Source: a virus
Length of the DNA stretch: 25,010 bases
Reading direction: 5' to 3' (one strand)
Virus genome (UHGV): UHGV-0271208
Of the stretch, positions 21,652 through 21,709 are shown in pieces. How positions within the stretch are numbered: position 1 is the first letter of the stretch; each line of letters begins with the position of its first letter. The translations under genes were made by a program, and so were the position numbers. Below the pieces are notes generated by a model. It saw only the letters and a list, made by a program, of their open reading frames with translations. It searched no databases and was not told the DNA's origin.

Positions 21652-21709
21652 TGAAACCTCGTAGAATCTGGTGTGTTACCCGATTCTACGAGTAGTCATT
21701 TGTGACAGG

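Follow-up and report, generated by a model that had tools for sequence, protein, structure and literature searches.

In IS10/Tn10, the element's own promoter reportedly starts transcription between the two arms of an inverted repeat, and only transcripts that come from outside fold back on themselves, these being poorly translated. The read-through transcripts of IS50 behave like those of IS10. In phage Mu, a translational hairpin is part of the functional mRNA of the mom gene and is opened by the protein Com. The protection of IS10 from outside promoters was described by Davis, Simons and Kleckner (1985, Cell 43:379), a paper cited in PMC13181058. In IS200, a stem-loop in the 5' UTR of tnpA sequesters the Shine-Dalgarno (SD) sequence, and an upstream terminator acts against impinging transcription (PMC4513863).

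A comparable arrangement is proposed here for the late promoter LPsit in a viral sequence of 25,010 nt (UHGV virus genome UHGV-0271208), the whole of which is referred to here as the window. The likeness to IS10/Tn10 consists of an inverted repeat, a downstream arm that covers a translation initiation region, and a promoter start, here a predicted one, between the arms. The two differ in what is protected, which is the transposase in IS10 and a phage late morphogenetic operon here; in addition, LPsit is activator-dependent (Lpa/SspA) and its upstream arm is the -10 hexamer itself. As in Mu mom, a late phage gene has its initiation region buried in a hairpin, but the Mu hairpin belongs to the functional mRNA, whereas the functional mRNA made from LPsit is predicted to lack one arm. 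With IS200 the locus would share a cis-acting stem-loop over the SD combined with protection from outside transcription, and P1 proper also has an upstream terminator-like hairpin; the native IS200 mRNA, however, contains its stem-loop and is constitutively repressed by it (PMC4513863). We propose, with moderate confidence, that the repeat at LPsit is a promoter-embedded fold-back insulator, one that most likely silences only the RNA read in from the adjacent cargo genes.

From about 9.9 kb onwards the window is a P1-like phage-plasmid, and the region around the repeat is 96-99.9% identical to E. coli plasmids of ~95 kb and to phages P1 and P7. The operon downstream of LPsit lies on the minus strand. 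Its first gene, pmgC (tubA in P7; 21085-21651), codes for a 188 aa tail-adaptor/head-tail joining protein that is 98% identical to PmgC of P1, and is followed, in the gene order of P1, by the ORFs of tub (20463-21074), pmgB (19567-20448), sit (15796-19485), pmgA (15440-15799), bplA (14010-15443) and gene 16 (13174-14013), the stretch from tub to gene 16 spanning 13174-21074. PmgC is an essential virion protein that acts as a tail adaptor or at the head-tail joining step (PMC9024508), and a second source also gives the pmgC product as essential for the virion (PMC10695390). Upstream of pmgC, and co-directional with it, are two cargo genes coding for proteins with signal-peptide-like N-termini. 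The nearer specifies a 158 aa secreted protein of the YfjT/YkfB family (21710-22186, minus strand; the name is that used in RefSeq, and PF27224 is found on homologues), and the second a protein of 224 aa (22248-22922, minus strand). This slot holds simABC in P1 and upf50.0/upf50.5 in P7, and homology with both phages breaks off at about 21703-21708. P1-like phage-plasmids have eight variable regions, of which the sim region is one (PMC9603915). The TGA stop codon of the 158 aa gene (21710-21712) is located 17 nt before the hairpin that the repeat would form, and a terminator scan of 21000-23600 returned no terminator-like sites, including between this stop codon and the hairpin. Given the size of ribosome footprints, a hairpin 17 nt past a stop codon should be out of reach of the terminating ribosome. 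In P1, a terminator-like hairpin, AACGCCC-ATTAAA-GGGCGTT followed by TTATTGTTTT, is found between simC and LPsit, ~100 nt upstream of the latter (P1 record 46732-46751, minus strand; L001 1908-1927). It has no equivalent in the window or in P7-type elements, because 17-20 nt lie between the end of their cargo gene and the LPsit hairpin.

The first ~9-10 kb of the window (within 1-10585) are not P1-like and carry a P2-type tail module, with genes for gpD (1606-2724, minus strand), sheath (2882-4075), tube (4088-4603), chaperone (4618-4953), tape measure (5079-8249) and GpU (8259-8708); a VasI/TagO-like protein is encoded at 237-884 (minus strand). The P2-type stretch matches chromosomal E. coli prophages at 96-98% identity, and its junction with the P1-like DNA falls near 9050-10600, beside an S-like tail-fibre gene. 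This junction is unusual, because no complete E. coli genome record was found to cover at least 80% of window positions 1-12800, and it could reflect either recombination via tail-fibre/invertase segments or a chimeric assembly. The S-like tail fibre (9935-12736, minus strand) has a long glycine-rich C-terminal domain unlike that of P1 S and a doubtful TTG start, and its counterpart in the closest plasmid is annotated as an incomplete pseudogene. Sit, a tape-measure/transglycosylase protein of 1229 aa (15796-19485, minus strand), contains an internal tandem duplication of ~110 aa in which the motif KGERVATVDPVSRSVSALNRTIENSRPDFV...NLGDVSR is present twice; in the closest plasmid the annotated CDS is shorter. 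At the other end of the window, Rfam matches mark the C4 antisense RNA and the a1/b1 target repeats of the P1 immI region (23069-23121 and 23190-23275, plus strand), upstream of icd and ant1 (ant1 at 23541-24575). Right after ant1 is a perfect 11 bp inverted repeat with a 4 nt loop (24586-24611, plus strand; AAACCTGCCAG/CTGGCAGGTTT), and a C1-operator-like sequence, ATTTGCTCTAATAAATTT (24656-24672, plus strand), precedes the next, kilA-like ORF.

LPsit is annotated at the position of the repeat in the GenBank records of P1 (AF234172) and P7 (AF503408); the P1 record calls it a 'late promoter' and LP23 'predicted'. From the -22 box to the ATG, the window is identical to P7, and to P1 save for one loop base that differs in P1. 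The annotated elements could therefore be carried over to the minus strand of the window: the -22 box AAATGACTA, which is the Lpa recognition element (21693-21701; the same sequence is annotated in P1 and P7), the spacer CTCG (21689-21692), and the -10 hexamer TAGAAT (21683-21688), a minus_10_signal in the P1 annotation. All 11 annotated P1 late promoters share the consensus AAC-AAGTGACTT-N4-TANNNT, which LPsit fits. Its -22 box matches the consensus at six of nine positions, the 4 bp spacing between box and -10 is common to ten of the 11 promoters (LPsit included), and LP26 has a -22 box and -10 identical to those of LPsit. As in other Lpa-dependent promoters of the P1 type, a 9 bp imperfectly palindromic -22 box resembling AAGTNACTT replaces the -35 element, and LPsit stands before the late morphogenetic operon pmgC-tub-pmgB-sit-pmgA-bplA-16. 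Lpa is a sequence-specific activator that works through host SspA (PMC1891329). A literature search found no paper giving transcript start data for LPsit. We infer that transcription starts at 21674-21677, inside the loop of the repeat, because a sigma-70 -10 hexamer sets the start 6-9 nt downstream and here the -10 lies within the upstream arm; the name '-22' borne by the centre of the box likewise places +1 at ~21675.

The preliminary description of this DNA had reported a perfect 11 bp inverted repeat with 13 nt spacing that overlaps the ribosome-binding site (RBS) of the 188 aa gene, and both points stand. On the plus strand, CTCGTAGAATC (21658-21668) and GATTCTACGAG (21682-21692) are perfect complements 13 nt apart, and with a repeat finder the arms grow to 15 nt, 93% complementary (14 of 15 pairs), around an apical loop of 5 nt. 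The SD of pmgC, GAGG (21657-21660, minus strand), has three of its four bases within the arm at 21658-21668, with a 5 nt gap (TTTCA) before the ATG at 21651. Along the minus strand the order is the -22 box AAATGACTA, CTCG, TAGAAT, the loop, GATTCTACGAG, G, TTTCA and ATG. On the annotation carried over from P1 and P7, the upstream (5') arm, CTCGTAGAATC (21682-21692), is the promoter spacer and -10 followed by one C, and the downstream (3') arm, GATTCTACGAG (21658-21668), is leader and SD, contributing the GAG within the 5' UTR of pmgC. The 13 nt loop between them (21669-21681) holds inner pairs, 21678-21680 with 21670-21672, in the folded RNA. The P1 annotation of LPsit marks the -22 box and the -10 only, and the right-hand arm of the repeat on the plus strand coincides with its spacer and -10. 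The promoter itself was already known. The complementarity of its -10 region to the pmgC ribosome site is not annotated, and we found no report of it in the searchable literature, an earlier mention being possible.

The window contains three perfect inverted repeats with arms of 11 bp or more and a spacer of 3-20 nt, against 0.15 expected from 400 mononucleotide shuffles, and at least one such repeat occurred in 10% of the 400 shuffled windows. Taken alone, a chance origin of the LPsit repeat is only moderately unlikely; it becomes implausible because the repeat is situated in an intergenic gap of 58 nt and is conserved. A 73 nt minus-strand RNA covering it folds with an energy of -25.5 kcal/mol (z = -4.8; one of 200 shuffles equally good).

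Under the fold-back proposal, LPsit would be fired during lytic growth by Lpa, host SspA and sigma-70 RNA polymerase, and transcription would begin ~7 nt after TAGAAT, in the loop. The late mRNA would then have a leader of ~24 nt with the downstream arm only, and would be without the hairpin because its predicted start lies between the arms, leaving the SD free. RNA begun further upstream, as from putative promoters of the cargo genes (simABC in P1, the two secreted-protein genes here), would carry both arms and fold, with 11 perfect and 3 inner pairs (14 in all) burying the pmgC SD, and it would for that reason be left untranslated into tail proteins. Such RNA may be able to enter, the cargo genes being co-directional and the terminator scan empty; P1 has its hairpin after simC. 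The first ~130 nt of the pmgC RNA are C-rich and G-poor (C/G up to 1.9), and the untranslated start of pmgC would probably also invite Rho-dependent termination, which would shield the tail genes further downstream. As barriers to read-through, P1 would have two and the window element only one, and the need for a second barrier in P1 proper, given the terminator-like hairpin upstream of LPsit, is not obvious, which counts against the proposal.

The energetic side of the proposal was assessed by predicting, for modelled RNAs, how much energy it takes to open the RBS from position -13 to +3. This cost was 6.9 kcal/mol for an RNA starting at 21674-21677 and 15.8-18.5 kcal/mol when the RNA was extended 30-400 nt upstream, so that the reduced translation expected of read-through RNA is seen as a predicted difference of about 10 kcal/mol. 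A contrast of 8-14 kcal/mol is also predicted in P1, JK004, Salmonella Newport, K. aerogenes and JGI L114, and a far weaker effect (2-3 kcal/mol), which counts against the proposal, in the clade of L105 and L107. As a control, the 40 nt upstream of the start were shuffled 200 times; LPsit gave z = 10.4 against these sequences, with none of the 200 shuffles as high, while the other P1 late promoters gave z of at most 1.5. The energy difference itself was 11 kcal/mol for LPsit, compared with 0-5 kcal/mol for the other P1 late promoters. Two of these have, on inspection by eye, a short anti-SD string between the -10 and the expected start: CTCTTCC / GGAAGAG in LP23 (P1 record 58773-58843, L006) and CCTCCT / AGGAGG in LPdar (P1 record 31183-31230, L005). 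The effect in LP23 and LPdar is small and not significant against shuffles, and a fold-back as a general rule of P1 late promoters was rejected. The design is absent from the other ten, so it is no general rule of P1 late operons, and this too counts against the proposal. Pairing within the late RNA between the downstream arm and CTCGAAGACGTC inside pmgC (-7.4 kcal/mol) is unconserved in JK004 and is probably incidental.

Conservation of the palindrome in relatives, put forward in the preliminary description as a check, was followed in P1-group loci, about 85 in number, that came from GenBank, IMG/VR and GTDB genomes. Neither arm varies among them, several loop variants occur, and variation among relatives falls almost wholly in the loop (21669-21681). 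Conservation sets in at the -22 box, and the sample includes at least five cargo junctions with unrelated upstream sequence. Because the P1-group loci are all very similar, the weight rests on diverged clades, which were found via PmgC homologues. In a clade made up of the Cronobacter phage JK004, Salmonella Newport, K. aerogenes and L114 (PmgC 75-78% identical), a -10 of TAAAAT is combined with ATTTTA in the leader, a compensated change from G:C to A:U, and two to three extra pairs are present. The mutually closest sequences L105 and L107 (PmgC 86% identical to each other, 65-72% to the rest) differ at the same pair, again with compensation, reading TAGAAT/TTTCTG and TAAAAT/TTTTTG, respectively; this double change counts as a second independent event, besides that between the P1 and JK004 clades. 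In an alignment of 14 sequences (A2), the pair in question (18-40) is G:C in nine, A:U in five and broken in none, and 90.6% of the cells are paired, compared with 31-45% when the partners are slid. Wobbles are seen as well: in K. aerogenes (L108 and L109), an A to G change at the leader position that faces the first T of the -10 gives U·G in the sense RNA and a mismatch in the DNA, and L105 has another sense-strand U·G. Between the window and JK004, each arm is identical at 10 of 11 positions and the loop at 7 of 13, the gene region being about 69% identical. The pattern is that expected of pairing kept by selection at the RNA level, as judged from these alignments. What counts against the proposal is that the covariation amounts to a single pair switching twice plus wobbles, and that promoter function constrains the -10 arm in any case.

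Serratia, Pantoea, D6-like E. coli plasmids, Citrobacter, Enterobacter and Photobacterium mostly have pmgC behind a baseplate gene, with at most a short unrelated spacer between the two, and in Vibrio and L115 the region upstream of pmgC is unrelated. Neither LPsit nor the repeat was found in any of these groups or in L115-L117, and no covariation was gained from them. It follows that the promoter-hairpin unit is a property of those lineages in which an immunity/replication/cargo block parts pmgC from the other tail genes.

The hairpin could instead serve the cargo transcripts as a 3'-end element, being a weak terminator, a pause site or a structure that guards the mRNA from 3' exonucleases, since it is stable, starts 17 nt past the upstream stop codon and has no other terminator nearby. 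We regard this as unlikely: the tail GUUUCAAUG has only three U residues and is unconserved (GUUGGC, GUUGCC and GUCACU in relatives), the terminator scan finds nothing, the conserved block from the -22 box stays with pmgC whatever cargo is upstream, and P1 keeps the repeat unchanged despite a separate terminator-like hairpin for sim. As an intrinsic terminator it was rejected, the stem being A/U-rich and not G+C-rich, and the tail being without a U tract.

The preliminary description had also offered a binding site for a dimeric protein, which could be a repressor over the LPsit -10 in the prophage or an accessory factor in late activation. The perfect dyad symmetry does overlap the promoter, the change from G:C to A:T would preserve a DNA palindrome as well as an RNA stem, and in both main clades 12-13 nt lie between the core arms. 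Even so, a role of this kind seems quite improbable, and the suggestion gained no positive support from the comparisons. The repeat is a single copy, with no other copy of an arm in 25 kb, and with up to two mismatches allowed no further copy exceeds chance expectation in the window, on which ground a motif or operator repeated there was rejected. The palindrome is absent from the other P1 late promoters, including LP26 with the same -22 box and -10, and a centre-to-centre distance of 24 bp between 11 bp half-sites is atypical. Known P1 sites differ, the C1 operator being ATTGCTCTAATAAATTT and the Lpa box AAGTNACTT, and the promoter and RBS elements in the arms already explain part of the conservation. 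The T·G combinations tolerated in two lineages, K. aerogenes and L105, break the DNA dyad and keep the sense-strand RNA pairing.

As for the RBS-sequestering hairpin, the other suggestion of the preliminary description, sequestration as such is supported by the fold energy, the covariation and the sense-strand U·G wobbles. What had been missed is that the other arm is the -10 and spacer of LPsit, and the late mRNA of the operon is most probably without the hairpin. For a constitutive version, in which the pmgC mRNA holds both arms and the hairpin throttles or times translation, perhaps until opened by a factor or by temperature, one may cite the stability of the stem, its position over the SD and the conserved pairing. 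It is nevertheless very unlikely, as the operon has a single annotated promoter, whose -10 makes up the upstream arm, and polymerase cannot start upstream of its own -10; a block of ~18 kcal/mol on the main mRNA would also fit an essential virion protein poorly (PMC9024508, PMC10695390). Just as improbable is a chance complementarity of promoter and leader with no function of its own, carried along by regional conservation: the P1-group surroundings are 96-99% identical, which gives invariance there little weight, and ~10% of shuffled windows hold one such repeat, but the two independent compensated double changes and the wobbles come from clades with pmgC 65-78% identical, divergence is much greater in the loop than in the arms, and the upstream sequence stands far outside its shuffles. 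Lastly, a divergent promoter using the mirror-image TAGAAT (21662-21667, plus strand) has no acceptable -35 or -22 box and the promoter scan was empty, and Rfam 15 gave no family for the repeat at the gathering threshold and none overlapping the arms even at E ≤ 10.

The fold-back insulator at LPsit may, we suggest tentatively, have a wider role as a self-insulating boundary element of the cargo slot, which, with its anti-SD arm made from the promoter's own -10, would allow any set of genes to be exchanged in the variable sim region without leak into tail-gene expression in the prophage. If true, this would account for the way in which at least five unrelated cargo modules border precisely on one and the same conserved block, and similar promoter-embedded fold-backs would be expected on the structural-gene side of cargo hot-spots in other phage-plasmids and prophages. 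The design, in which the promoter's own -10 would be used as an anti-RBS, would be simple and portable, and in P1 engineering or pmgC cloning, constructs retaining the 11 nt that precede the start site would translate poorly. P1 serves as a model phage, and the sim slot is one of a small number of variable slots in which P1-like phage-plasmids bear resistance genes and other cargo; should the hairpin act in the proposed way, the essential late operon would be kept silent in the plasmid prophage no matter which genes came to lie upstream of it.
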